Source of the DNA: an uncultured Chloroflexia bacterium
GTDB lineage: Bacteria > Chloroflexota > Limnocylindria > QHBO01
Assembly (NCBI GenBank): GCA_963837425.1
Contig: CAWINH010000002.1
Location: 129,500 to 193,499 of the forward strand
Length of the DNA: 64,000 bases
Direction: 5' to 3'
Shown here: positions 1-20,050 of the stretch, piece by piece
Numbering within the stretch: position 1 is the stretch's first letter
Layout: every line of letters starts with the position of its first letter
Notes under the pieces: generated by a model
The model's database searches: none
Told to the model about the DNA's origin: nothing
Seen by the model: only the letters and a program-made list of their open reading frames with translations
Made by a program: the position numbers and the translations under genes

Positions 1-371
1 CGCTCCTCGGCGATGAACCGCGCCATGCGGCCTGCTGTCCCGTCGACGTCAGCTCGGAGCTCGTGCTCCCAGATAGTGATCACCTTCCAGCCCGCGGCAA
101 CGAGCGCCGATTCAGCGGCGCTGTCCCGCTTCACGTTTCGCTCGAACTTCTCCCGCCAGAACTCAGCGTTCGCCTTCGGCTGCGGAAGCTGGCACGAAGG
201 ACACCGGTGCCAGTAGCAGCCATTGACGAAGATGGCCAATCGAACGGCGGGGAACACGATGTCGGGACGACCAGGAAGTCCAGACCCACGGCGGTAGCCA
301 CGTCCGCCAGCGGCCCATAGCGCCTTGCGGAAACGGGTCTCAGTCCGAGACACGTTCTTGTTTGCCCGCAT
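1..371 (-). CDS. vsr: Very-short-patch repair endonuclease Vsr. It is C-terminally truncated by the window edge.
   Basis: Reverse-strand translation gives MRANKNVSRTETRFRKALWAAGGRGYRRGSGLPGRPDIVFPAVRLAIFVNGCYWHRCPSCQ...FWREKFERNVKRD...GWKVITIWEHEL. This matches Vsr hallmark motifs (LPGRPDxVF, FVxGCFWH, GW.V..WE). The ATG is at 371. The reading frame differs from the 131..571 ORF in the supplied track. Confidence 0.8.
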   Translation of the reverse strand, partial: MRANKNVSRTETRFRKALWAAGGRGYRRGSGLPGRPDIVFPAVRLAIFVNGCYWHRCPSCQLPQPKANAEFWREKFERNVKRDSAAESALVAAGWKVITIWEHELRADVDGTAGRMARFIAEE

Positions 372-408
372 CGTATTGCGGGCGTTCTCAGAGGTGGCCG
401 GGGGTCTG

Positions 409-1395
409 TCAGGCCGCTGGGGCGAGGACCCGGCCGATGTACTGATCCGCGAGATGCTTGGCGAGGAAGGCGACAACCGGCACTACCACTGAGTTTCCGA
501 ACTGACGATACGCCTGGGTGTCGGACACCGGGATCGCGAAACTGTCTGGATAGCCCATAAGTCGCGCGCATTCTCGCGGCGTGAGGCGTCGCGGCGTCGG
601 TCCGTCCGTTCGAAGGAGGATTTCCGACCCGTCCTTGTGGTAGCGAGCGCTAAGTGTGCGGGTGACGCTGTCCGGCCCCGCTAAGCCATAGCCGAATCCG
701 TTGCCGGCGGCCCGGTGCTTCAGTGCGTACTGCTGAAGGTAGCTCCACAGATGGTCGCTCAAGGAATATTTCGGGTCGGGGCTCTCCTCAAGGATCTGTC
801 CGAGAGTGAGGCGCGGCTCGTCAGAGGGTGGGTCGGGGAACTCGAAGGCCTCGTCACCGAAGACGTCACGATGGAGGCAGATCATGAATGTCCGCTCCCG
901 GTGCTGAGGCACCCACCACTGCGCGTCGATGACCTTGTGCCGGAAGTTGTATCCGAGCGCTTCCAGAGTGCCGCGGATGACCCGGAACGTGTTGCCGCGA
1001 TCATGCGAGATGAGGTTCTTCACGTTCTCAAGGAAGAGCACGGGCGGAGGATTCGGAGCCTCCTCAATGAGGCGAATGATCTCGAAGAAGAGGTTGCCGC
1101 TCTTTTCGTCCTCGAATCCGTGGAGACGGCCAAGGCTCAGCTTCTTGCTGACGCCTGCGATGCTGAAGGGCTGGCACGGAAAGCCGGCTGCCATCACGTC
1201 GTAATGCGGGAGTTCGCGGCCACGCACCTCATGAATGTCTCCGCGCTCGCAAGCACCGTAGTTGGCTTCGTAGGTCTGCCGCGCGAACCGGTCGATCTCC
1301 ACGGAGTACACGCATGACCCGCCCGCCCGCTCTAGACCCATCCGGATGCCTCCGATGCCTGCGAAGAGGTCGATGAACCGGAAGCGCCGGGTCAC
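409..1395 (-). CDS. dcm: DNA (cytosine-5)-methyltransferase, Dcm-like.
   Basis: 328 aa. Motif I FAGIGG, motif IV PCQPFS, motif VI ENV. It lies immediately upstream of vsr, in the classic dcm-vsr arrangement. Confidence 0.9.
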   Translation of the reverse strand: MTRRFRFIDLFAGIGGIRMGLERAGGSCVYSVEIDRFARQTYEANYGACERGDIHEVRGRELPHYDVMAAGFPCQPFSIAGVSKKLSLGRLHGFEDEKSGNLFFEIIRLIEEAPNPPPVLFLENVKNLISHDRGNTFRVIRGTLEALGYNFRHKVIDAQWWVPQHRERTFMICLHRDVFGDEAFEFPDPPSDEPRLTLGQILEESPDPKYSLSDHLWSYLQQYALKHRAAGNGFGYGLAGPDSVTRTLSARYHKDGSEILLRTDGPTPRRLTPRECARLMGYPDSFAIPVSDTQAYRQFGNSVVVPVVAFLAKHLADQYIGRVLAPAA

Positions 1396-1699
1396 ATGAG
1401 GAGATCCGCTGAGAGCATGGGGCCAGGATACCGCGCAAACGCGACGTCAGTCGGTCGCAATTCGCTGGCTGCGCCCTTCTCTCCACAGAATTTGTCCACA
1501 TTCGCGACCTGCTGCTGTGGATCAGTCTTGCCGTGAGCGTCCGTAGCACCGGTCGGCGGCGACTTTCACCTAGCCGCGCGCGTTGGCGGCCACGCTCACC
1601 GAGTTTGGGCCGCCGTCCGCGCGCCATTCGCGCGGCCGCAGACCAACAGGGTGACCGGGCGCTTCATCGGCATCCTGCGGCGCTTGGTGAGTAGACGCG

Positions 1700-2824
1700 C
1701 TAGGTCGGTAGGCCGAGCTTGGCCTTCAGCTCCTTGCCGATCGCCTCGCGAGTCTGGAAGCTCATCCTGAGGGAGAGGCGCTGATTCCCGCCGCTGTCCG
1801 TCGACGGTACTAGGACGCCGATGCGCTGCCAGACGGGGTTCTCGTAGCTGAAGTAGTCGGCGTCCCTGCCGTCGACGACGACCGCGCTGCGGAGGCCCGC
1901 CAGCGATGTCGCCGGATTGATGCCGTTCCGGAACAGGGCGTCGGCGACCGCGATCACGCCGTGAATCGACAGCGCGGTCCCCGCCATCGATGTCCCGCGC
2001 AGATCTCGCCGATCCTTCAGGGAGATGCGCCCGAACTCGGGCCGGACCTTCACAAGCTCTCCCCAGAAGCGCGCGAGGAAATCGGTGTGGCGGGCCTCGT
2101 CGGCATCGCTCAGCGGCTCGTCGAGCCAGGAGTTCTCGATCGCCTGAGCGAGAGTGTTGAACGCGGTCAGCTTCGCGCTCGAGGCCGAGACGGTGTTCTT
2201 CAGCACCTCGATGTTGTCCATCGACAAATGGCCTGACTTGCGCATGAGCTGACGCGCCATCCGCTCGGCGAAGTTCCCCTGGTGCGCGAACTTCGCGGCC
2301 GTGTCGTTGACCTTGTCGCCGCGCGTGTTGTAGATGAACGCCACCCGCTTCGCGAGCTGGTCATCGGCGATCCAGATCCGCACCTGGAACTTCGTCTCCG
2401 GATTGAATGTCGCCATCGGGTTCTGGGCGGCCTTGACGATTGCCTTGATGCGCGACAGGGAGTCGACCGCGCAGTCGAACTGGCCGCCGATCAGGTGGAG
2501 GTCGAGCTGGCCCTCGTCCTCCTCGACGTAGTACTCGCTCGCTGTCGGATCAAGACGGATGCTGATGTTGCCGATCACCGCGTCATTGCGGAGCAGCTCC
2601 TCGGTCCAGGTATCGATCTTGCGACGGGTCTTGGCGCCCATGCGCTGGCCCGGCATGTGGTCGGGGCGGATGTTTCCGACCGTCGTGAGGAGGCCCCGGT
2701 CGATCATGTCGACGAGGTAGCCCCCGGTCATGGTGGTCTCGTAGTGGACGCCCCCCGCATCGTCCACGGGATGGACGTTCAGGATGGTCGCGGTGGGCGC
2801 GGTCGGTGCGGCTGCGGTCGTCAT
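1700..2824 (-). CDS. Hypothetical 374-aa protein. By position it is a candidate restriction endonuclease partner of the Dcm-type methyltransferase.
   Basis: Long ORF co-directional with and immediately upstream of dcm-vsr. I could not recognise PD-(D/E)xK or HNH motifs by eye. The stretch HLIGGQFDCAVD resembles a degenerate DGQHR-like motif only weakly. Confidence 0.55.
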   Translation of the reverse strand: MTTAAAPTAPTATILNVHPVDDAGGVHYETTMTGGYLVDMIDRGLLTTVGNIRPDHMPGQRMGAKTRRKIDTWTEELLRNDAVIGNISIRLDPTASEYYVEEDEGQLDLHLIGGQFDCAVDSLSRIKAIVKAAQNPMATFNPETKFQVRIWIADDQLAKRVAFIYNTRGDKVNDTAAKFAHQGNFAERMARQLMRKSGHLSMDNIEVLKNTVSASSAKLTAFNTLAQAIENSWLDEPLSDADEARHTDFLARFWGELVKVRPEFGRISLKDRRDLRGTSMAGTALSIHGVIAVADALFRNGINPATSLAGLRSAVVVDGRDADYFSYENPVWQRIGVLVPSTDSGGNQRLSLRMSFQTREAIGKELKAKLGLPT

Positions 2825-2994
2825 CGGAGAGTTCCTTCAGGGTGATGGTGTTGAATTCGGAAGCACGAGCGAACTGTACGGTACTACCGTGCGTGTCGTC
2901 AACCACTACGTGCGACTTGCCAATAGTACGTGCCATGGAGTACGGTACGTGCCGCAGCGGGAGCTGCCCATCAGGGGTGTGACAGTCCGGGTGA

Positions 2995-4909
2995 GTGGGT
3001 AAACTTGGACAGACAGACGGGCGGGAGGACGCCGTGGACGGTGGAGTTACCTGGATCTTCGACCAGGTACCGGCATCCGGGGCTCGACATGGCGGGCTGG
3101 CAGAGGCCGAGGTATTCGACAAGGACATCGGCACGTTCGTTCGCGAAGTCCTCCAGAATGCGAGGGATCAGCGGCGGCCGGACACTCAGGTCAGGGTCCG
3201 ATTCCGACTGGAAGACCTGTCCGGCCCGGACTTGGAGCACTTCCTTCAGGGAGCGGATTGGCGGCAGCTGGAGCCGCATCTGGACGCCATCGGAAGTGCC
3301 GACTACATCACCGTCAGCCCACGCGTGCGAGACAGCCTGGATGCGCTGCGCTCAGCTGGCCATCTGCGGCTTCTCCGCATCGATGACCACGGGACCAATG
3401 GGCTCACCGGCGACGAGGACGACCCCGAGGCGAACTTCAATGCCCTCTGCCGCAACACCCTTATCACTCCCAGCGGCCGCAGGGAGTCGGGCGGGAGCTT
3501 CGGTCTCGGGAAGTCCGTGCTGTGGCGGTTCTCGGGACTAAGCACGGTGCTATTCGCGTCATCTGTCCATGGGCCTGAACCGAGACACCGCTTCTTCGGG
3601 CGGACGCTCTTGGCATGGCACGAGACGCCCGAAGGTGAATGGGAAGGTTCCGGGCTGGCTCGGGCTCCCCGAGACGCGCCCCGCCGGCAGACGAGCTATC
3701 TCGCTTTGGGACGATGACGCGGCGCGGCAGGCACAGTCCTGTCGACTTGATCGAGACCTGGGCGCCACGGGGACGTCGATCCTGATTCTCGGGTTCGATG
3801 ATCCGTCCATCGAAGAGGAGCCATCCATCCCGGTCCACTGCGCCAGCATCGTGGAGGCTGCGGCACGGTGGTTCTGGCCATCTCTCAGCAACGGCGGGAT
3901 GGAAGTCTTCGTCGAGGGATTCGATGAGACCGGTGAGGTTTACGCCCGTCAGGCGCACATGACGCCGCTGGTCGAACCGTTCGTGCGCGCCCAAGCCCAA
4001 GATGCTTCGCTGCGGGACACCGTCTCGGAGCCGGGGCACATCGCGCAGCGGGACATCCCGCTGATGGTTCCCGGCCAGAGATCCGAAGCGCTTCCCAACC
4101 CAAGGCCCGCGGTTGAGGCATCGGCGCGAGTCCGGCTGCGGCTTGCAGAATCAGGTGAGGCTTCAGACCTTCAAAACACCGTGGCCCTTCAGCGCGGAAG
4201 CGGAATGGTCGTGGAGTATTTCGAGCCGACCAGGAGATCGCTTGTCGACCAGCCCTTCTACGCCACGCTGACAGTTGGAACCGCCTTGGGTGACACCGCC
4301 GCGGATCGATCGGCCGAGGAGTTCCTCAGGTCTGCGGAACCAGTCGCACATTCGGAGTGGACGGTGACCACCGACCGGCTCCGGAGTGAATACGCTGTCG
4401 GCGCCCAGGCTGCGCTCCGCCAGTTCCTGGAGCGGATCAGCGGGGCGGTCCACGACATGCTGCGACAGGCGACCAGCGACAGCACCGAGGCCCCTGAGGC
4501 GCTGCGGAGACTCTTCCCGCTTCCCGGTGTCGGAGGCGGAAGCACTGCCCGAGAGCCGTACCGGCTTTCGGACGCGATTGGTTTCGTATCCGATGACGGA
4601 GGGCAGTTCGGCGGCGTCTACTCCCGATCGTCTGGCCTCCGGTCGGACTGGCGTTTCAAGCTGGCGATTCACCCAGACCAAGAGGAAGGAACCGCACGCG
4701 AAAACGTACCGGTGGTCAACCTGAATGTTGATGTCGGCGAGGCCATCGGCCCCGATCCCGCCGGCTGGTGGACGGTGACAGTGCCGAGTGACCAGCAACG
4801 GGTCCACTTCCAGGGTCGTACCGGCAGGCTGGAAGGTGTCCCCGAGGGTGGCATGCGTCGAGCCGGCGTGAGGCTCGACGTTCGGCCTGTGGCGGGTGGA
4901 CAGCTGTGA
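2995..4909 (+). CDS. GHKL/MORC-like ATPase with a C-terminal extension of about 450 aa of unknown family. It is interrupted by a 1-nt frameshift near 3640-3660.
   Basis: GTG start at 2995. Bergerat-fold motifs are present: N-box EVLQNARDQ, G1 IDDHGTNGL, G2 GGSFGLGKS. ORFs 2995..3717 and 3569..4909 overlap in different frames, and the junction sits in a G/C-rich run. Confidence 0.6.
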
Positions 4910-5879
4910 GCGAGGCCGTCCTTCATCCGTACCGATTCGGCGCGGATGCGCTGTCGTTGTCGTGCGGGCTCGAAGGTGTCGAGAATGAGAGCACACCGTC
5001 GGGAGACCTTCTGCTCCTCGAGCCGCTGCCTCGGGCGGGCGTTCTGCGGATTGCCGCCACCGTTCGGGTCAGCGCAGGAACATTCGAGCGGGTGCTCCCT
5101 GAGGACGAACGCAGCCCTTCCCCTGTGCAGGTTGCGGTCGTGGTGCGCAGCCCCTCAAGTCGCATCCGTGCCGCGTTCCCGCTCGCCGACGCAGGCGATT
5201 CCTATGCCGGGACGATCAGCATCCAGACTGACGAGTTGTATTCGCGCATCAGTCTGACGCCGGTTCTCGTGCGGAGCACCTCGGCGTCTGTTCGCGACGG
5301 CTTCGCAACACACCTCGGCGCGATCCTCGCAAATGGGCGCTCGGTCGATGTACTTCTCGATGAACCGATCGCCCCGCCAGGCGGGTACCTCGAGATCGAA
5401 TTTGAGGACTTCCGCCGCTCGCCGAATTCCCTGCGGCAGAGGAATGCCGATCGGATGTTCGCCATCGACACCGAGGGCGCGTTCCCGAAGCTGTGGCTGA
5501 ACCAGTCGATCGACAATCTCGAGGATGTGATGCGGAGCAGGGCGCGCCGAGGAGTGCCCCGCCGGATCAGGGACGCGACCTACGACACAGTCTGCTGTCA
5601 GGTCTGGACCGCGCTGATTTCGGCGAGCCTCACGGAGCTTGCGGCCAGCGCAGACGACGATGTGAGCGAGGCCGACGCGGTCGGCTCGCTGCTGAATGGC
5701 AGCAGCGGGTGCTCCACTTCTGGGCTCCCCGACTGTATCCCGAGCTCTCCAATCAGGAGCAGGCGCTGTCGGAGGTGTGCGCAGCGACTTGGCGCGAGGG
5801 CCACGGTACGGAACTGCTTGAACGCGCCTCTCTGGCGATCCAGGGCTGGGCGGGATCGTCGGAGGCGTCGGTGGTCTAA
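4906..5879 (+). CDS. Hypothetical protein B of the GHKL operon, about 325 aa, with an apparent frameshift near 5700.
   Basis: Start overlaps the upstream stop by 4 nt. No motif recognised. The plausible C-terminus (VLHFWAPRLYPELSNQEQALSEVCAATWREGHGTELLERASLAIQGWAGSSEASVV*) is in a second frame that ends at 5879. Confidence 0.4.
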
Positions 5880-5907
5880 TGCGGCTGGTGAGCGGGGAGG
5901 CCGTGTG

Positions 5908-6611
5908 ATGGCCTACCTCCGCCGCTTCGTGCGTTCTTTGACCCCCGTTTCACTCGAAGCGGTCCTCAGGGGAGAGGAACGTCCTTCAGGAGCGGTCCGG
6001 GCGGCGTCGAGCTTGAGCCGCTCGAAGCAATGATCGAGCGGCTGTCGCCGACTTTGTCCGGCAGCGAAATCGACGCCGCCCTCGTGGAGCCCGTGCACCT
6101 TGCCCTCGCGCCCATCTCGCGCTCCGACGCCGCAGACATGCGCGTCTGGCAATGGCTGAACGCAGTCGCCTTTCCCGGGCTTGTATGGCGGCGCTGGCGA
6201 CCCCGGGGTGAGCCCGATTCCGGCGGATTGTCCGGTGCGCTCACCAGCCCAATGGTCCGGCGGTTCGCCGGCAGCAGTACGCTGTCAGGCGTAAGCCGGA
6301 ACACCCTCGCCCGGCTCTGGTGGACTGCCGAACACGTCGCTGGGGACTATGAGTGGCGCGATTCGCCCTCTCGCGCCAAGATATGTTTCAAGCCATTTTC
6401 GACCGGCTTTTCGGGCTTTACGAGCCAGCGGCAAGGGCGGCCCTGTCGAGATTTCGAGGGCGTTCCGAGGACGAGATCCGGGATGCAGCCCGGTGGGCTC
6501 AATTTCGTGGCCTCGACGACTGCGCTTGAATTCCTGTCAGAGGATGATATCGGCGCGATACTTGATGAGGCTCTCGGCCAGCCACTTCCTGTGGTCCACC
6601 CCGAGACGTGA
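5908..6611 (+). CDS. Hypothetical protein C of the GHKL operon, with a possible frameshift at about 6030.
   Basis: A strong Shine-Dalgarno sequence (ggggagg) sits 8 nt upstream of the ATG at 5908, right after the gene B stop. That frame stops at 6033, which overlaps an ATG at 6030 that opens a 193-aa ORF (6030..6611) with no recognisable family. Confidence 0.4.
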
Positions 6612-6650
6612 GGTTGTGACGCGCCGTGCGGAGCCACCGCTCCAACCGTT

Positions 6651-7239
6651 TCACCTTGCCAGCGGTAAGGCGCGCCCCATCAGCCTTGTAGGCTTTGCAT
6701 AGTCGAGGCTCGCGGGCGACGAAGGCGTCGAAGTCGTCCGGCGTGACGAGCTCGTCCTTGCGCGGTTGATGAACTTCACGAACTCCGCGTACGCACCACT
6801 CCCGGCGTGGTAGACCAGGTTCAGGCGCGGGCGGAGGTCCCGGATGAGCAGGTATTGACCGATGCCGTCCAGCACATCGGGCTGCGCCGGCAACCCCGCC
6901 TCGGGGCGGTATCGGCCAGCAGGCGATGGCAGAAGGAGTGGAAGTTGGCGACGGTCAGGCGGGCCGCGGTGGCGGCGCCCACCGCCTGCGTCGATCCGCT
7001 CGCGCAGCTCGCGCGCGGCCTTGACGTTGTAGGTCAGGACCAGGAGCTCTCCGGCGGGAGGTCCTGGCTTGCGTGCGCAGCAGCCAGGCCACGCGCTCGA
7101 CGATGACCCGCGTCTTGCCCGTGCCCGCCCCGGCGATGACCACCGCCGGCCCATCGCCCCACTCGACGATGGCGCGCTGCTCAGGCGTCAGCGGCAGCGG
7201 TTCCGGGTGGTCCTTGCGTCGGCTGTCAGCCGCGGGCAC
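6651..7239 (-). pseudogene. UvrD/PcrA-like SF1 DNA helicase. Only the N-terminal 200 aa or so are present, and the fragment is frameshifted.
   Basis: LTPEQRAIVEWGDGPAVVIAGAGTGKTRVIVERVAWLL (Walker A) lies in one frame and LTYNVKAARELRERI (motif Ia) in another. There are no downstream helicase motifs. It converges on the GHKL operon. Confidence 0.6.
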
Positions 7240-7443
7240 AACGGCGATGGTGCGTTCCCTCCCTTATGCCGCTGATCATCGGCCATTCAGTCAAGCGGGA
7301 GCGTCGCAATGTGGAAGTCAGAGCTGACAGCGGTCTGGCAGGATGGAGCGGACCGCGGCATGCCGCGGAGGGAGGAGTGATGTCCGTTACATGTATTGGG
7401 GTGCATGGGCCTCAGGCAGCTTGTCTGTGCTACGCTGTGCCAC

Positions 7444-7869
7444 GTGAGCACACAACCGAAACGCCAGCACCTCTCCTTCCGCCTCCCTGAGCCGACCCTG
7501 GATCGGCTCGAGGCGCGCGCACACGAGATCCGCGAGACGCGAACCGGCCTCGCGGAGCGCTACCTGGACGAGGGGCTGCGGATGGACGAGCACCCTGGCA
7601 TCGGTTTCGCGGATGGTCCAGCCGGGAGGCGCGCGGTGGTGATGGGGACCGGGCTGGACGTCTGGGAGGTCATTGGCGCGGTGAAGGCCGCCCGGGGATC
7701 CATTGCCGCCACTGCCCGTTACCTGGACCTGCCGGCCGCCAACGTCCGGGCCGCGATCCGCTACTACGCGGAATTCCCGGCCGAGGTGGACGAGCTCCTG
7801 GCGCGCCAGGCGGAGGCCGCTGCCCGCGAGGAGGTGGCAGCTCGCCGCGAGCGCGCCATCCTGCGGTGA
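7444..7869 (+). CDS. DUF433-family protein with an N-terminal ribbon-helix-helix, antitoxin-like.
   Basis: HLSFRLPEPTLDRLEARA (RHH-like) followed by HPGIGFADGPAGRRAVVMGTGLDVWEVIG (DUF433-like). It is followed after a 4-nt overlap by a DUF5615 gene. The GTG at 7444 is a plausible start, and the ATG at 7396 is an alternative. Confidence 0.6.
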   Translation: MSTQPKRQHLSFRLPEPTLDRLEARAHEIRETRTGLAERYLDEGLRMDEHPGIGFADGPAGRRAVVMGTGLDVWEVIGAVKAARGSIAATARYLDLPAANVRAAIRYYAEFPAEVDELLARQAEAAAREEVAARRERAILR

Positions 7870-8243
7870 AGCTGCTCCTGGACGAGCATTTCTCGCCCCA
7901 GATCGCCTCCCAGCTCCGGCGCCGGCGCCACGACGTGGTCGCCGCCCGCTCGGACCCGAACCTCCACGGTCTGGCCGATGCGGAGCTCCTCGCGTGGGCC
8001 ACCGCGCAGCGCCGCGCGCTCGTCACGGAGAACGTGGCCGACTTCGCGGAGCTCCACCGGTCTGCGGTCATCAGCGGGGATCGGCACTTCGGGATCGTCT
8101 TCACCTCGGCGCGCCGATTCCCGCGTGCCGAGCGTGCGATAGGGCGGTTGGTGACGGCCCTCGACGCGCTGTGCGATGCGAGCCCCGCCGCGGATGCGCT
8201 TCTCAACCAGACGTGGTGGCTGGAGCCTGCCCCCGAAGGTTGA
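7866..8243 (+). CDS. DUF5615 (PIN-like, Mut7-C-type) putative toxin.
   Basis: 125 aa, starting MKLLLDEHFSPQIASQLRRRRHDVV. It is translationally coupled to the DUF433 gene. Confidence 0.6.
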   Translation: MKLLLDEHFSPQIASQLRRRRHDVVAARSDPNLHGLADAELLAWATAQRRALVTENVADFAELHRSAVISGDRHFGIVFTSARRFPRAERAIGRLVTALDALCDASPAADALLNQTWWLEPAPEG

Positions 8244-8719: not shown

Positions 8720-9505
8720 CTAGGCGAGATCGGCGAGGCGATCCGTCAGCAGCCGATCCAGCGTGTCCGGGTAAGGGATGCCGGCAGACCGCGCCACGGG
8801 CTGCGCCAGCTCCCGGTAGAGGCTCACCAGCGCGTGCGCCGCTGAGAGCAGCGCCGCGCGTTCGATCGGCACCACGGACGCCCGCAGCCTGTCCGCCACA
8901 TCCGCCGGGAGCGCCGAGTCCACCTTCCAGTACGGATCGTCCGGCTCGAGCTCGGCGTTGGCCACGACTCGCGCCAGGCCGATGCACACGCCGCGCATCT
9001 CCTCCAGCCCACCGTGCGCCCACAACAGCTGGCCGCGCCCGAGGGCGGTGATGACGTGCTCGAGGTCGTGCCAGAACCAGGCCACCAGCTGGCGGGCGTG
9101 CTCCGTCGCATCCGGTGCGGGAGCGGACCTCCGTGCCGAAGCGGCCTCGACGGCGCCGCCCTTGTCGAGCACGACCCGGTACGGGCGCGATAGGTCGAGT
9201 GCCGCAGCGGTGGTCAGGATCAGCTCGTAGGCGGTGCCATCCGCGTTGATCACGTGGACGTTGGCCGGGTTGTCGAAATGCTCGGCGAAGAGCGGCTCAC
9301 CCATCGCCCGCAGCAGGGCGTCGCGGTGAGCGATCACCTCTGCCTGAGCGTCATCGGCCACCACCACGCCAATGTCGACGTCGGAGAACGCGTCCGCCGT
9401 GCCCGTCGCATGCGAGCCGAAGAGGAGGACCGCCACGAAGCGGTCGTCCGCGGCGACCAGGGCCGTCAGGCGGTCAAGAAGGGGAGCGGGGTCATGCGGC
9501 TCCAT
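8720..9505 (-). CDS. Nucleotidyltransferase-domain protein, aminoglycoside/lincosamide adenylyltransferase-like.
   Basis: LLFGSHATGTADAFSDVDIGVVV is the GS..D.D minimal nucleotidyltransferase motif. 261 aa. Confidence 0.65.
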   Translation of the reverse strand: MEPHDPAPLLDRLTALVAADDRFVAVLLFGSHATGTADAFSDVDIGVVVADDAQAEVIAHRDALLRAMGEPLFAEHFDNPANVHVINADGTAYELILTTAAALDLSRPYRVVLDKGGAVEAASARRSAPAPDATEHARQLVAWFWHDLEHVITALGRGQLLWAHGGLEEMRGVCIGLARVVANAELEPDDPYWKVDSALPADVADRLRASVVPIERAALLSAAHALVSLYRELAQPVARSAGIPYPDTLDRLLTDRLADLA

Positions 9506-9607: not shown

Positions 9608-9850
9608 ATGGCGCTGGCCCGCACGAACCTGACCCTCCCGGAGGATCTGCTCCGCGAGGTTGATGCCATGGCCGGCCCGCGTGGTCGGAGCCGGTACGTG
9701 GCGGAGGCGGTCGCCCAGCGCGTCCGTCGGGACAAGCTCGGCCAGGCGATCCGCGACAGCGCCGGCATCCTGGCCGGCTCGCCGGACGCCATGACTCGGC
9801 GCCAGGTGAGCGCCTGGGTGGCGCGATTGCGCTCCGAGACGACGGACTGA
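9608..9850 (+). CDS. vapB: Ribbon-helix-helix antitoxin, VapB/CopG-like.
   Basis: MALARTNLTLPEDLLREVDAMAGPRGRSRYVAEAVAQRV. It lies 13 bp upstream of a PIN gene. Confidence 0.7.
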   Translation: MALARTNLTLPEDLLREVDAMAGPRGRSRYVAEAVAQRVRRDKLGQAIRDSAGILAGSPDAMTRRQVSAWVARLRSETTD

Positions 9851-9863
9851 GGCGACTGCGACG

Positions 9864-10247
9864 GTGGCGCGCTACCTCCTCGACTCCACGCTGCTCATCG
9901 ACCATGCCAACGGGGATCGGCCGGCCGCCGCCCTGCTCCATCGGCTGTTCGAGGACGGTCACGAACTGCTCACCTGCGACGTGGTCGCCTCCGAGGTCCT
10001 CTCCCGCGGGACGGATGCGGACCTCGCCCACCTCCGCACCCTGCTCGACGCGCTCGACTACGTCGCCACCTCTCCCGATGCGGCCCAATGGGCCGGCGAG
10101 TCCCGCCGGCAGCGCCATCTCGCCGGTGGGCGTCGTGCCCTGGCCGATGCCCTCATCGCCGGCGTCGCGACGGACCTCGGCGCCACGGTGGTCACCCGCA
10201 ACCGCCCTGATTTCGAGCGGCAGGGGATTGCGGTCCTGACCTATTGA
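9864..10247 (+). CDS. vapC: PIN-domain toxin VapC.
   Basis: MARYLLDSTLLIDHANGD...TRNRPDF, 127 aa. Confidence 0.8.
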   Translation: MARYLLDSTLLIDHANGDRPAAALLHRLFEDGHELLTCDVVASEVLSRGTDADLAHLRTLLDALDYVATSPDAAQWAGESRRQRHLAGGRRALADALIAGVATDLGATVVTRNRPDFERQGIAVLTY

Positions 10248-17550: not shown

Positions 17551-19177
17551 CTAGCGCACCAGGGCCTCGATCACCTCCTCGGCCGCGCGCTCGCTCTGCC
17601 GGTCGCCGCTGACCGCGCAGACGAAGGCGATTCGATCGAGGGTCAGGGTCTCGAGATCCGTGGCGGCCATCACCCCCGCGGTGCGCGGCACGTCCCGGAG
17701 CAGCGCGAACTCCCCGAACGACTCGCCTGCCCGGTCCAGGCGGGCCACCACCCGCGGGCCGACTCGGACCTCGACGGCGCCCGATTCGATGATGTAGAAG
17801 CGGTCGCCCACGTCGCCCTGCCTGATGACGGCGTCGCCGGCCGTGAAGTGCATCGGCACGAGGTCGGCGGCCAGCTGCTCGAGGACGGTCATCGGCAGCA
17901 CGCGCAGCATGGGCACCGCGCGGAGGAGCGCCAGCTCGCGCTCCGGGATCACCGCCTGCCGATCGGCGGCGACCATCGCCCGCCAACCGATGATGGCCGC
18001 GGCCGGCAGGAAGGCCCCGGTCGCGATCCACGCCCCGCGCACCCCGAGCGCGCTGACCAGGGCGGGCGCCAACGCCGAGCCAATGCCCACCGTCAGCATG
18101 ACGAGCGACTCGAGGACGGCGAAGACCCGGCCCCGGACCGCGTTCGGGACGATCCGCTGCATGAGCGAGAAGCCGGCGACGTCGACGAGCGCGTTGCCGA
18201 CGCCCACCGCCGCCAGCGCGACGAGCCCGACCCACGCGACCGGGGACGAGCCCGACCACGAGGATCGGCAGGCCCCAGAGGAGGAGGCCGCCAAACAGCC
18301 CCGGCGCCAGGCGGCTGCGGCCCACCAGCACCACCGTCGCGAGCGCGCCGAACAGGGCGCCGGCGCCAATCGCGGCATTGAGGTAGCCGACCCCTTGCTG
18401 TCCCATGTCGAGCATCTCCACGGCACCCGCCACGATGAGCACGCTCAGGATCCCGCGCACCAGGGTCTGCGAAGCGAAGAGGCCCAGGAGTTCGCCGACG
18501 TGGGGAACCTGGACCGATGCGCGCAGGCCGCCGAAGAGCGTGTCGGCCACGTTCCCGTGGGGTGGCGGTCGCAGCGGGCGCGCCGGGCGGGCCCTGCTGA
18601 TGCTGAGGACCGCGATCCCCACCAATGCCGCGGGCGCCGCGAAGGCGAGCGGGGTGCTGCCGGTCGCCACCAGCGCCCCGCCCAGCACCGGGCCGCCCAG
18701 GATCCCGATCGACTCGACGGTGCTCGACGCCACGTTGGCGCCCACCAGCTCGTCCGGCGCGCGGGCCAGGGAGGGGAGCATCGACATGTAGGCCGGCCGA
18801 CGGAGGACGGCCAGCAGCCCGTCCACCGAGGCGATGACGTAGACGACGATCGGCGGCCAGCCAAGGATCGCGGCGAGCGTCGCCGAGCTGAGGAGCAGGC
18901 ACCGACCGGAGTTGACGGCGAGGAGGACCCGGCGGCGGGAGAATCGGTCCGTGACCGTCCCGAGCGCCGGAGCCAGGATGCCGGCCGGGAGGTTCCGCGC
19001 CAGGCCCACCAGGCCCACCACCCCCAGCCCGCCGGCGTCGTAGGCGTACACGTAGAGGGCCACCAGCCAGGCCCACTCGGCCGCATTGCCGGCCATCCAG
19101 GCCAGCAGCGCCCGCGCGATCTCCGGGTTGCGGACCACCCGGCCCATGGCCGCCAGTGCTTCCCGGAGACCCTCCAT
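17551..19177 (-). CDS. MFS transporter fused to a C-terminal cyclic-nucleotide-binding domain. There is an apparent 1-nt frameshift near 18240.
   Basis: The N-terminal 330 aa or so of ORF 17396..19279 are MFS TM helices. ORF 17551..18426 in another frame continues with MFS TM10-12 and a cNMP-binding domain (GESFGEFALL...). The junction is at ctcgtccccggtcgcgtgg. Confidence 0.6.
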
Positions 19178-19351
19178 ACCGACTCTCAGGCTAGTCGCCC
19201 GGGCAATCAGGCGGCCCGATGTGACGCGGGCGGCCTGGCCGAAGCTCGGCGTGGGCGCCGCACGCCGGCGCCAACGCACGGGGTGCAGGGTCGAGCTCGA
19301 TCGCCCAAGAGCCGGCGATCACGCTCTGAGGCTGGGGTATCGTGGTCGGCC

Positions 19352-20050
19352 ATGAATCGGCCGGCAGACGACCGGGCAGCCGCGGAGTCCCTGGTCGCGA
19401 GTATCACGGCCTCCGTCCGAGCATGGTCGGAGTCAGATTCCCACGACCCGGGCGTCACGCTGCTGGAGGTCCTCGCGTATGCGGCCGACGCGCTCTCCGC
19501 GTACCAGGATCGCGTGGCCGGCGAGGCGTCCATCGGCACCGGGCGGCGGTTGTCGCAACTTCGCGTCGAGTGTGATGGTGAACGCTGGCTGGAGGTCGCG
19601 AGCCTGGACGGATCCGGACCGGATGATCCCCACTACGTCGTGAGCGCTGCGGAGGACGGGGCGACGATCATCCAGTTCGGCGACGGCGAGCACGGCCGGC
19701 GCCCCGCGTCCGATGGGACGCTGCAGGTCGCCTATCGCCGCGGTTCGGGGTTCACATCGGTCCTGGTCCAGGAGGGGAGGGTCGTGATCGATGCGGACTG
19801 GAATGCGCCCGCCGAGCCTGCGCTCTGTGGGATCTACCGTGCGCGAGTGCTCGATGCCAGCGACCCGACCGGGAAGGGGCGTCTTCAGGTCCAGATCCCG
19901 GCGGTCTCCGGCTCGCCGTCGGGTTGGGCCGCCCGCTGCGTCCCGGCGGGTGCTTCGGCGGACCTGCCGGCAGTCGGCGACCTAGTGTGGGTGGCCTTCG
20001 AGGCCTGCGATCCGAACTACCCGGTCTGGCTTGGCCGATTGGTCCCCTGA
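19352..20050 (+). CDS. Phage or contractile-injection-system spike/baseplate-like protein with a gpV-type OB-fold at the C-terminus.
   Basis: C-terminus GKGRLQVQIPAVSG...WAARCVPAGAS...AVGDLVWVAFEACDPNYPVWLG resembles P2 gpV (Phage_base_V). N-terminus has a baseplate-like motif (GVTLLEVLAYAADALSAYQDRVAGEA). It lies in the same frame as the long antisense ORF 17825..20050. Confidence 0.5.
   Translation: MNRPADDRAAAESLVASITASVRAWSESDSHDPGVTLLEVLAYAADALSAYQDRVAGEASIGTGRRLSQLRVECDGERWLEVASLDGSGPDDPHYVVSAAEDGATIIQFGDGEHGRRPASDGTLQVAYRRGSGFTSVLVQEGRVVIDADWNAPAEPALCGIYRARVLDASDPTGKGRLQVQIPAVSGSPSGWAARCVPAGASADLPAVGDLVWVAFEACDPNYPVWLGRLVP

Follow-up and report, generated by a model that had tools for sequence, protein, structure and literature searches.

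ATPases of the MORC and paraMORC type, which combine a GHKL domain with an S5 domain, were predicted in 2008 to act in restriction-modification (R-M) systems together with cytosine methylases and Vsr (Iyer, Abhiman & Aravind 2008, PMC2292703). One such group, paraMORC2, has a conserved ExxxH at the C-terminal part of S5 and an R-M neighbourhood, and is found in cyanobacteria and Gram-positives (PMC2292703). Another, paraMORC3, is represented by VcSduA (Shedu type I-D) of Vibrio cholerae, a GHKL ATPase that is needed for anti-phage defence, in which the ATPase glutamate is essential and for which an entwined dimer with a clamp-like middle domain is predicted (PMC12137116); we found no other experimentally validated GHKL-led defence. 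A further candidate, PDC-M33, emerged when BREX, DISARM and type I R-M systems were screened by guilt-by-embedding; it is listed there with a count of 98, in a supplementary table only (Payne et al. 2024, bioRxiv 10.1101/2024.01.29.577857). Here we analyse a 64,000-nt stretch of DNA from an uncultured Chloroflexia bacterium (contig CAWINH010000002.1; hereafter the window), which holds near its start three adjacent genes, A, B and C, the first of them encoding a predicted ATPase of this kind.

Our preferred reading, to which we give a probability of about one half, is that the three genes in the window are an inactivated copy of a cassette that is mobile and conserved and forms the effector half of an R-M-like defence keyed to 5-methylcytosine (m5C). 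The layout of the locus was read from a listing of open reading frames (ORFs) and a three-frame translation. All three genes lie on the plus strand and point away from DndB-like, Dcm and Vsr genes grouped on the minus strand, an arrangement that had been noted in a preliminary description of this DNA and with which our ORF map agrees. Gene A (3034-4909), predicted to encode a paraMORC-type GHKL+S5 ATPase, has one frameshift at about 3653 and yields 624 aa when repaired; gene B (4906-5908), predicted to encode an immunoglobulin (Ig)-like beta-sandwich joined to a helical bundle, has frameshifts at about 5694 and 5870 and yields 332 aa; and gene C (5908-6611), for a DUF6339 protein, has frameshifts at about 6021, 6356 and 6498 and yields 232 aa.

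The cassette and its proteins

Hidden Markov models (HMMs) built from seeds were run over 83-84 related loci, metagenome contexts included. The A-B-C order is essentially universal among them: as the idea of a module had led one to look for, synteny is conserved in essentially all 83 related loci, with B present in 79 of 84 and C in 76 of 84, the exceptions being truncated contigs. In all seven metagenome contexts the genes are co-directional, stand in the order A-B-C and overlap by 1-11 nt. The three genes are translationally coupled and travel together. Their spread is wide, since at least 556 relatives turned up when GTDB was scanned with each species represented by one genome. Judged by record titles, the 75 loci that were fetched comprise about 23 haloarchaeal loci, about 30 from Myxococcota and 7 from Actinomycetota, with one or two each from Acidobacteriota, Gemmatimonadota, Gammaproteobacteria, Planctomycetota, Cyanobacteria, Chloroflexota and Armatimonadota. 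The cassette is also found on eight plasmids, including cyanobacterial ones, and no relatives of A were found in 2.9 million IMG/VR viral contigs.

Protein A had been described as having a Bergerat-fold ATPase core with N-box, G1 and G2 motifs. Indeed, these motifs are present in the window (REVLQNARDQ, DDHGTNGL and GGSFGLGKS), and the residues E38, N42, D45, D119, G124, G154, G155, G158, G160 and K161 are invariant in 105 homologues. The protein thus has the GHKL pattern of ExxxNxxD, a DxGxG-type motif and GxxGxG, with one extra residue in motif II (D-x-G-T-x-G). The repaired protein has 290 homologues of about 620-630 aa; those with a source name are all labelled hypothetical (most are unnamed), and hardly any of the 290 comes with a precomputed Pfam domain. 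Sequence methods were negative for the fold: Pfam gave no match at E≤1 on 32 members of the A family, HATPase_c_3 included, the A profile matched none of the PDB sequences, and hhalign of A with a HATPase_c_3 protein returned a probability of 0.3%. The GHKL fold was detected by structural comparison only, which verified the earlier GHKL/MORC assignment. The leading structural matches, with the paired values of the comparison in brackets, are MORC3 (19.0; 290), SMCHD1 (17.9; 320), the MutL N-terminal domain (15.9; 279), MORC2 (15.3; 317) and TopoVI-B (13.7; 302), followed closely by ParE, TRAP1 (mitochondrial Hsp90) and T6 phage topoisomerase II, and further down by other type II topoisomerases, Hsp90-family proteins and sacsin.

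This list of matches identifies A as a GHKL domain with an S5 transducer. As modelled, A is a MORC/SMCHD1/MutL-like GHKL+S5 ATPase that keeps all of its ATP-binding motifs, and its Bergerat fold is followed by an S5-fold transducer, as in the GHL subclass. Just past the S5 region are an invariant E435 and H439 (EPPAH), and the C-terminus consists of a helical segment with this ExxxH and then an Ig-like beta-sandwich. The strict MORC S5 motif GhXhhpXXRhl is absent; by eye, the corresponding segment of A, GMIVQYHEPAR, has its arginine at +10 and not at +8. A metagenomic homologue of A with 933 aa (P0098) carries an N-terminal extension of about 310 aa with PF18780 and a sigma-70 region 4 helix-turn-helix (PF04545).

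Protein B has 14 relatives by word-index search and 838 cluster representatives (50% identity) by exhaustive HMMER search, nearly all of about 320-350 aa. Its model, built from 130 sequences with a predicted confidence (pLDDT) of 94.9, places a beta-sandwich at 12-200 and a helical bundle at 217-331; the sandwich is Ig-like, and no enzyme fold is seen. Acidic positions are hardly conserved in B, which makes an enzymatic role unlikely. The statement that B matches nothing holds for Pfam, PADLOC and PDB, and the profiles of B and C against PDB sequences returned noise only (designed helical repeats and NikR). A Top6A/Spo11-like partner for a TopoVI-B-like A was considered for B and excluded by its Ig-like sandwich and helical bundle and by the lack of any Toprim or CAP match.

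The same statement had been made for protein C, where it has to be withdrawn: C matches Pfam DUF6339 (7e-13) and the PADLOC model PDC-M33C. It has 61 close relatives, with conserved polar or aromatic positions at D56, H64, D77, W81, W83, R96, W97, R119, N132, R136, Y148, Q158, R167 and E208. Housekeeping matches for B and C had been named beforehand as grounds for abandoning the module; both proteins lie outside such families, B being unmatched and C belonging to DUF6339/PDC-M33C. In one locus (L055:11855-13984), a 709-aa ORF matches DUF6339 at residues 68-211 and, at 492-618, the C-terminal portion of an nSTAND1 NTPase profile, and is either a genuine fusion or a two-gene read-through.

Cytosine methylase, T:G repair and DndB-like neighbours

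On the minus strand of the window, upstream of the cassette, are an intact 328-aa C5 cytosine DNA methyltransferase, Dcm (409-1395; Pfam DNA_methylase 1e-82 over its full length), whose top PADLOC model is DrmMII (1.4e-129), and a very-short-patch (T:G) repair endonuclease, Vsr (3-476; Pfam Vsr 4e-14, and also found by a Vsr HMM from related loci), whose ORF runs past the window start at its 3' end. Such neighbours are frequent in other loci. A C5 methylase lies within 3.4 kb of the cassette in 42 of 83 loci, and in 16 of the 34 loci with full 5-kb flanks; 38 of the 42 Dcm-linked loci also have a Vsr or a HhH-GPD glycosylase, and the Dcm linkage is found in 12 of 17 sequence clusters of A. Together with DISARM-like flanks, these counts bear out the expectation that orthologues of the ATPase co-localise with R-M or defence genes. 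All seven metagenome contexts have a C5 methylase close by, and Vsr or HhH-GPD appears in the gene calls of all but L005 and L006, in which a later HMM scan puts a Vsr-like ORF beside Dcm. On the Synechococcus elongatus plasmid pIITB6_1 (NZ_CP143872.1, 256-5820), the RefSeq annotation reads hypothetical, hypothetical, DUF6339 and DNA cytosine methyltransferase in one overlapping operon, and by ORF coordinates Dcm is co-directional with the cassette and within about 70 nt of it in L008, L048, L081 and L083. Like this plasmid, Knoellia sp. Soil729 (NZ_LMSA01000004.1) and Terrabacter sp. MAHUQ-38 have intact cassettes.

Several variants of this neighbourhood were seen. Seven haloarchaeal loci (L034, L037, L042, L044, L046, L047 and L060) have two or three paralogous A-B-C cassettes around a single Dcm and HhH-GPD. 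DISARM-like genes stand beside the haloarchaeal cassette in L030, L038, L050, L053, L058 and L061; they comprise a helicase of about 1,000 aa, an MZB/DUF1998 protein and a phospholipase D (PLD) nuclease. A second, unrelated GHKL protein (HATPase_c_3; PADLOC MzaB 5.1e-68) is encoded in L003 (13568-14854), L004 and L013, between C and a long Dcm of 619-656 aa, with Vsr next. Long Dcm proteins of 620-680 aa are also found in L005, L008, L083 and Synechococcus pIITB6_1, and the extra residues of the long variants, about 250, have no Pfam match.

Between Dcm and the cassette is a gene (1700-2824, minus strand) for an intact 374-aa protein that had been taken for a candidate restriction endonuclease. 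Pfam, PADLOC and jackhmmer point instead to a DndB-like protein (Pfam DndB 6.6e-06, PADLOC DndB 1.4e-05). The Pfam score of 25.8 bits is under the gathering score of 29.1, and the DGQHR motif is degenerate, reading PGQRM; jackhmmer seeded with the DndB gene of L001 recovers the window protein at 4.2e-56 after iteration. A gene of this DndB-like kind is present in three loci, L001, L072 and the window; it is divergent in the window and directly upstream of A in L001 and L072, overlapping the A start in L001. No close relative of the window protein was found among the 83 loci. The gene set of DndB-like protein, A, B, C, Dcm and Vsr or HhH-GPD recurs in these three loci in differing order. A second kind of upstream gene, which we call X2 (324-464 aa), occurs in eight other distinct loci, including L003:9027-10001, L005:8995-10011, L013, L030, L042, L047 and L063, and abuts or overlaps the A start where checked (L003-L006, L013 and L030). 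X2 has no Pfam and no PADLOC match, and a remote DndB was excluded for it by an hhalign probability of 0.1%. A better description of the unit would be A-B-C together with Dcm, an enzyme for T:G repair and, optionally, a DndB-like gene or the unrelated X2.

The start of A is most likely GTG 3034, which is preceded by a GGGAGG Shine-Dalgarno sequence 6 nt upstream. With this start, the divergent spacer (2825-3033) measures about 209 bp and not the 170 bp first given. The spacer contains one putative sigma-70-like site, on the minus strand at 2902-2873, and short direct repeats within 2876-2953, GTACGGTAC at 2876 and 2940 and GTACGTGCC at 2926 and 2945. These repeats could be operators for the DndB-like protein, or chance matches. 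DndB has a regulatory role in dnd operons, and by analogy the DndB-like protein is probably a regulator acting at the divergent promoter.

Frameshifts and the state of the copy in the window

Frameshifts were mapped by tblastn against the intact proteins of L001, the closest homologous locus, which is from a forest-soil metagenome, with the frame junctions optimised by brute force. After repair, the identity to L001 is 69% for A, 60% for B and 65% for C. Frameshifts had been reported near 3650, 5700 and 6030, and all of these were seen, although the count is six (one in A, two in B and three in C), with no in-frame stops. The 4-nt overlap of A and B is present as GTGA at 4906-4909. By contrast, the 4-nt overlap of B and C that had been placed at 6030/6033 is an artefact of frameshift read-through (ORF B as read in the window has 375 aa); the genuine B ends with a TGA at 5906-5908 and C begins with an ATG at 5908, giving a TGATG with a 1-nt overlap. 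Both junctions, GTGA and TGATG, are identical in the intact L001.

A UvrD-like superfamily 1 (SF1) helicase remnant on the minus strand (6651-7239; Pfam UvrD-helicase 2.7e-11, on the fragment 6955-7239) converges on the cassette, as the preliminary description stated; it is truncated to its N-terminal 200 aa or so and has at least three frameshifts in the three-frame reading. No similar helicase was found beside A-B-C in other loci, and it is not a conserved partner of the cassette. The frameshifts in all three ORFs and the helicase had been put down to either decay or assembly indels, and of these two causes decay is favoured. It is fairly likely, to judge from the sequence, that the cassette has been locally pseudogenised: no frameshift occurs in the 2.1 kb of Dcm and DndB-like sequence right next to it, the other suspicious overlapping ORF pairs in the window proved to be two intact genes each (ABC-transporter ATPase/permease pairs among them), and the truncation of the helicase is not something that indel errors could produce. 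A cassette that is intact in the organism, its six frameshifts being indels from assembly or basecalling, would account for how well the repaired frames are conserved, at 60-69% identity to L001 and free of stops, and the shift in A amounts to one G too many in a run of GG; the source is a public assembly whose read type is not stated. Nonetheless, none of the six shifts sits in a long homopolymer, and with the unshifted neighbours and the truncated helicase this makes an intact cassette doubtful. Split or frameshifted A, B or C genes also occur in L041:2146-4024, L070:1956-5514, L051:13990-15224 (where the adjacent Dcm is likewise split or frameshifted) and P0043, which indicates that decay of the cassette recurs; P0043, at 956 aa, was ruled out as an A-B fusion and is a frameshift read-through. 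As it reads in the window, the effector arm is dead and the methylase effectively orphaned, and intact Dcm, Vsr and DndB-like genes beside a decayed A-B-C correspond to the well-known outcome for R-M systems whose attack arm has been lost.

The GC content is 0.61-0.68 over window positions 1-7500 and 0.68-0.75 beyond, and by this measure the block looks like an acquired island. Just downstream, at 7396-8243, is a toxin-antitoxin-like pair (DUF433-like and DUF5615/PIN-like), and a second such pair, ribbon-helix-helix (RHH) and PIN (VapBC-like), is found at 9620-10247, with a nucleotidyltransferase gene between the two pairs (8720-9505, minus strand). Further along, a 750-aa ORF (17798-20047) with a C-terminal Phage_base_V domain (the OB domain of VgrG/baseplate spikes) suggests a type VI secretion system (T6SS) or phage-tail-like element.

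Readings of function and comparison with known systems

The earlier proposal of a GHKL-based restriction or defence module is supported as a candidate, since gene order is conserved, the ATPase keeps company with R-M genes and its partners are not housekeeping proteins; the role in defence is taken from genomic context. In the mechanism that we propose, A-B-C would be the effector ('restriction') half of an m5C-keyed R-M-like system, in which the methylase would mark self DNA and Vsr or HhH-GPD would repair the deamination damage arising from methylation. Other GHL ATPases dimerise on ATP binding to clamp or loop DNA. A may likewise dimerise upon ATP binding and clamp or loop DNA, with its C-terminal Ig-like domain, B and C as the DNA-reading or effector partners, and unmarked incoming DNA would be cut by a not-yet-recognised nuclease, for which C is a candidate, or clamped and silenced. 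A narrower form, which we consider quite improbable, is nuclease-free immunity, in which the MORC/SMCHD1-like A, with the m5C status read for it by B, by the tryptophan-rich DUF6339 protein or by both, topologically clamps foreign DNA that lacks methylation and silences it; if true, it would be a prokaryotic counterpart, and possibly an evolutionary source, of the methylation-linked silencing by eukaryotic MORC and SMCHD1.

A number of observations weigh against an m5C-keyed effector. No nuclease domain was found in the models of A and B, and a classical R-M endonuclease fold is likewise missing from them, while the profiles of A, B and C have no PDB sequence match; our literature search found no experiment on this family or on PDC-M33; no PADLOC model, PDC-M33B included, is matched at E≤0.01 by the B fragments of the window or by seven intact B proteins from five lineages (L001, L028, L034, L040, L076, L078 and L084); and the six frameshifts could be assembly errors. 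On the supporting side, the more alike two A proteins are, the more alike their adjacent Dcm proteins tend to be (Mantel test on the similarity matrices, p 0.001), although host taxonomy confounds this co-variation. In about half of the loci, most of them from Myxococcota, no C5 methylase is encoded within 10 kb and the neighbouring genes are unrelated, which indicates that the cassette can work without a linked methylase, and in L007 (5642-8617) the Dcm and HhH-GPD beside A-B-C are joined by an EcoRII-type endonuclease (EcoRII-N/EcoRII-C), so that the adjacent methylase already has a classical partner. The methylase-free half with its variable neighbours, the EcoRII-type enzyme adjoining the L007 Dcm, and the fact that PDC candidates are defined by embedding in other systems and not by functional linkage would all fit a methylation-independent defence or abortive-infection module, in which A would detect or clamp either a phage protein or the DNA of the invader, C or B would be a toxin or adaptor, and Dcm and Vsr would be nearby only because both they and the cassette are defence-island cargo. 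This explanation is unlikely in our view: Dcm is in the same operon across several phyla, the linkage extends over most clusters of A, the gene set recurs with its order rearranged, and random co-occurrence in islands would not place Dcm within 3.4 kb so consistently.

MutL stimulates Vsr in E. coli, and the cassette might similarly assist very-short-patch repair, or DNA maintenance linked to methylation, in the manner of MutL, with A stimulating Vsr or HhH-GPD at T:G mismatches. If this were its role, it would be hard to explain that half of the loci lack Dcm or Vsr, that haloarchaeal loci have two or three paralogous copies, that the distribution is patchy and includes plasmids, and that decay is recurrent (the window, L041, L070 and P0043); moreover, Vsr and HhH-GPD go with C5 methylases generally. 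We therefore regard a repair accessory as very improbable. If the cassette is a working defence, it would be a widespread addition, counting at least 556 GTDB species representatives and 838 clusters of B at 50% identity, with a motor structurally closest to eukaryotic MORC3 and SMCHD1 that is tied to cytosine methylation and T:G repair. It would put to the test the origin of MORC-type ATPases as R-M components that was predicted in 2008, and could reveal how a GHKL clamp is linked to an epigenetic mark where no nuclease is recognisable.

Among described proteins, A fits the general paraMORC concept: like the paraMORCs and prokaryotic MORCs, it is a GHKL+S5 protein with intact ATP motifs, methylase and Vsr neighbours and a patchy lateral spread. 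Its invariant ExxxH (E435..H439), the Dcm/Vsr context and the actinobacterial and cyanobacterial members recall paraMORC2 in particular, a comparison made by description only. Unlike the MORC/paraMORC R-M systems, the core cassette here has no superfamily II (SFII) helicase and no restriction-endonuclease (RE)-fold nuclease, its partners being B and the DUF6339 protein. In VcSduA, a DUF4263 PD-(D/E)xK nuclease is fused into one polypeptide with the ATPase, whereas A has no fused nuclease and two separate obligatory partners; Pfam finds no DUF4263 in A, whose C-terminus is the helical segment and Ig-like sandwich. The sequence identity of A to eukaryotic MORC3/MORC2 and SMCHD1 is 8-10%, the CW, coiled-coil and hinge domains of those proteins are missing from A, and A sits in a prokaryotic operon. 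The C-terminal dimerisation/endonuclease domain of MutL is also absent. With classical R-M systems the window shares a cognate methyltransferase, Dcm.

The closest likeness is to PDC-M33, for which our literature search found no mention in any paper, as was true of DUF6339; a paper on YprA/ARMADA has no mention of DndB, MORC or GHKL. In PADLOC, PDC-M33 (CAS_00129, FAM_02818>>FAM_02838>>FAM_01881) has the same three-gene A>>B>>C order as the present cassette, and the PDC-M33A profile has 627 positions, compared to about 625 aa for A here. A matches PDC-M33A at 1.3e-13 for the window fragment and at 1.7e-19 to 3.3e-31 for intact homologues, the match covering mainly the N-terminal 240-490 residues, and C matches PDC-M33C at 1.1e-08 in the window and at up to 1.7e-17 in L001. 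These two profiles are matched by A and C of every lineage tested. Because A and C match and B does not, the present family is, as far as sequence comparison goes, a sister branch of PDC-M33, and one that PADLOC would probably not call complete. The linkage to Dcm, T:G repair and DndB that we observe lies outside the PDC-M33 definition. The concept of paraMORCs in R-M was already known and the family is partly catalogued as PDC-M33; what is new at the family level is the closeness to MORC3 and SMCHD1, the two novel obligatory partners, the lack of a recognisable nuclease, and the tight coupling to Dcm and T:G repair.

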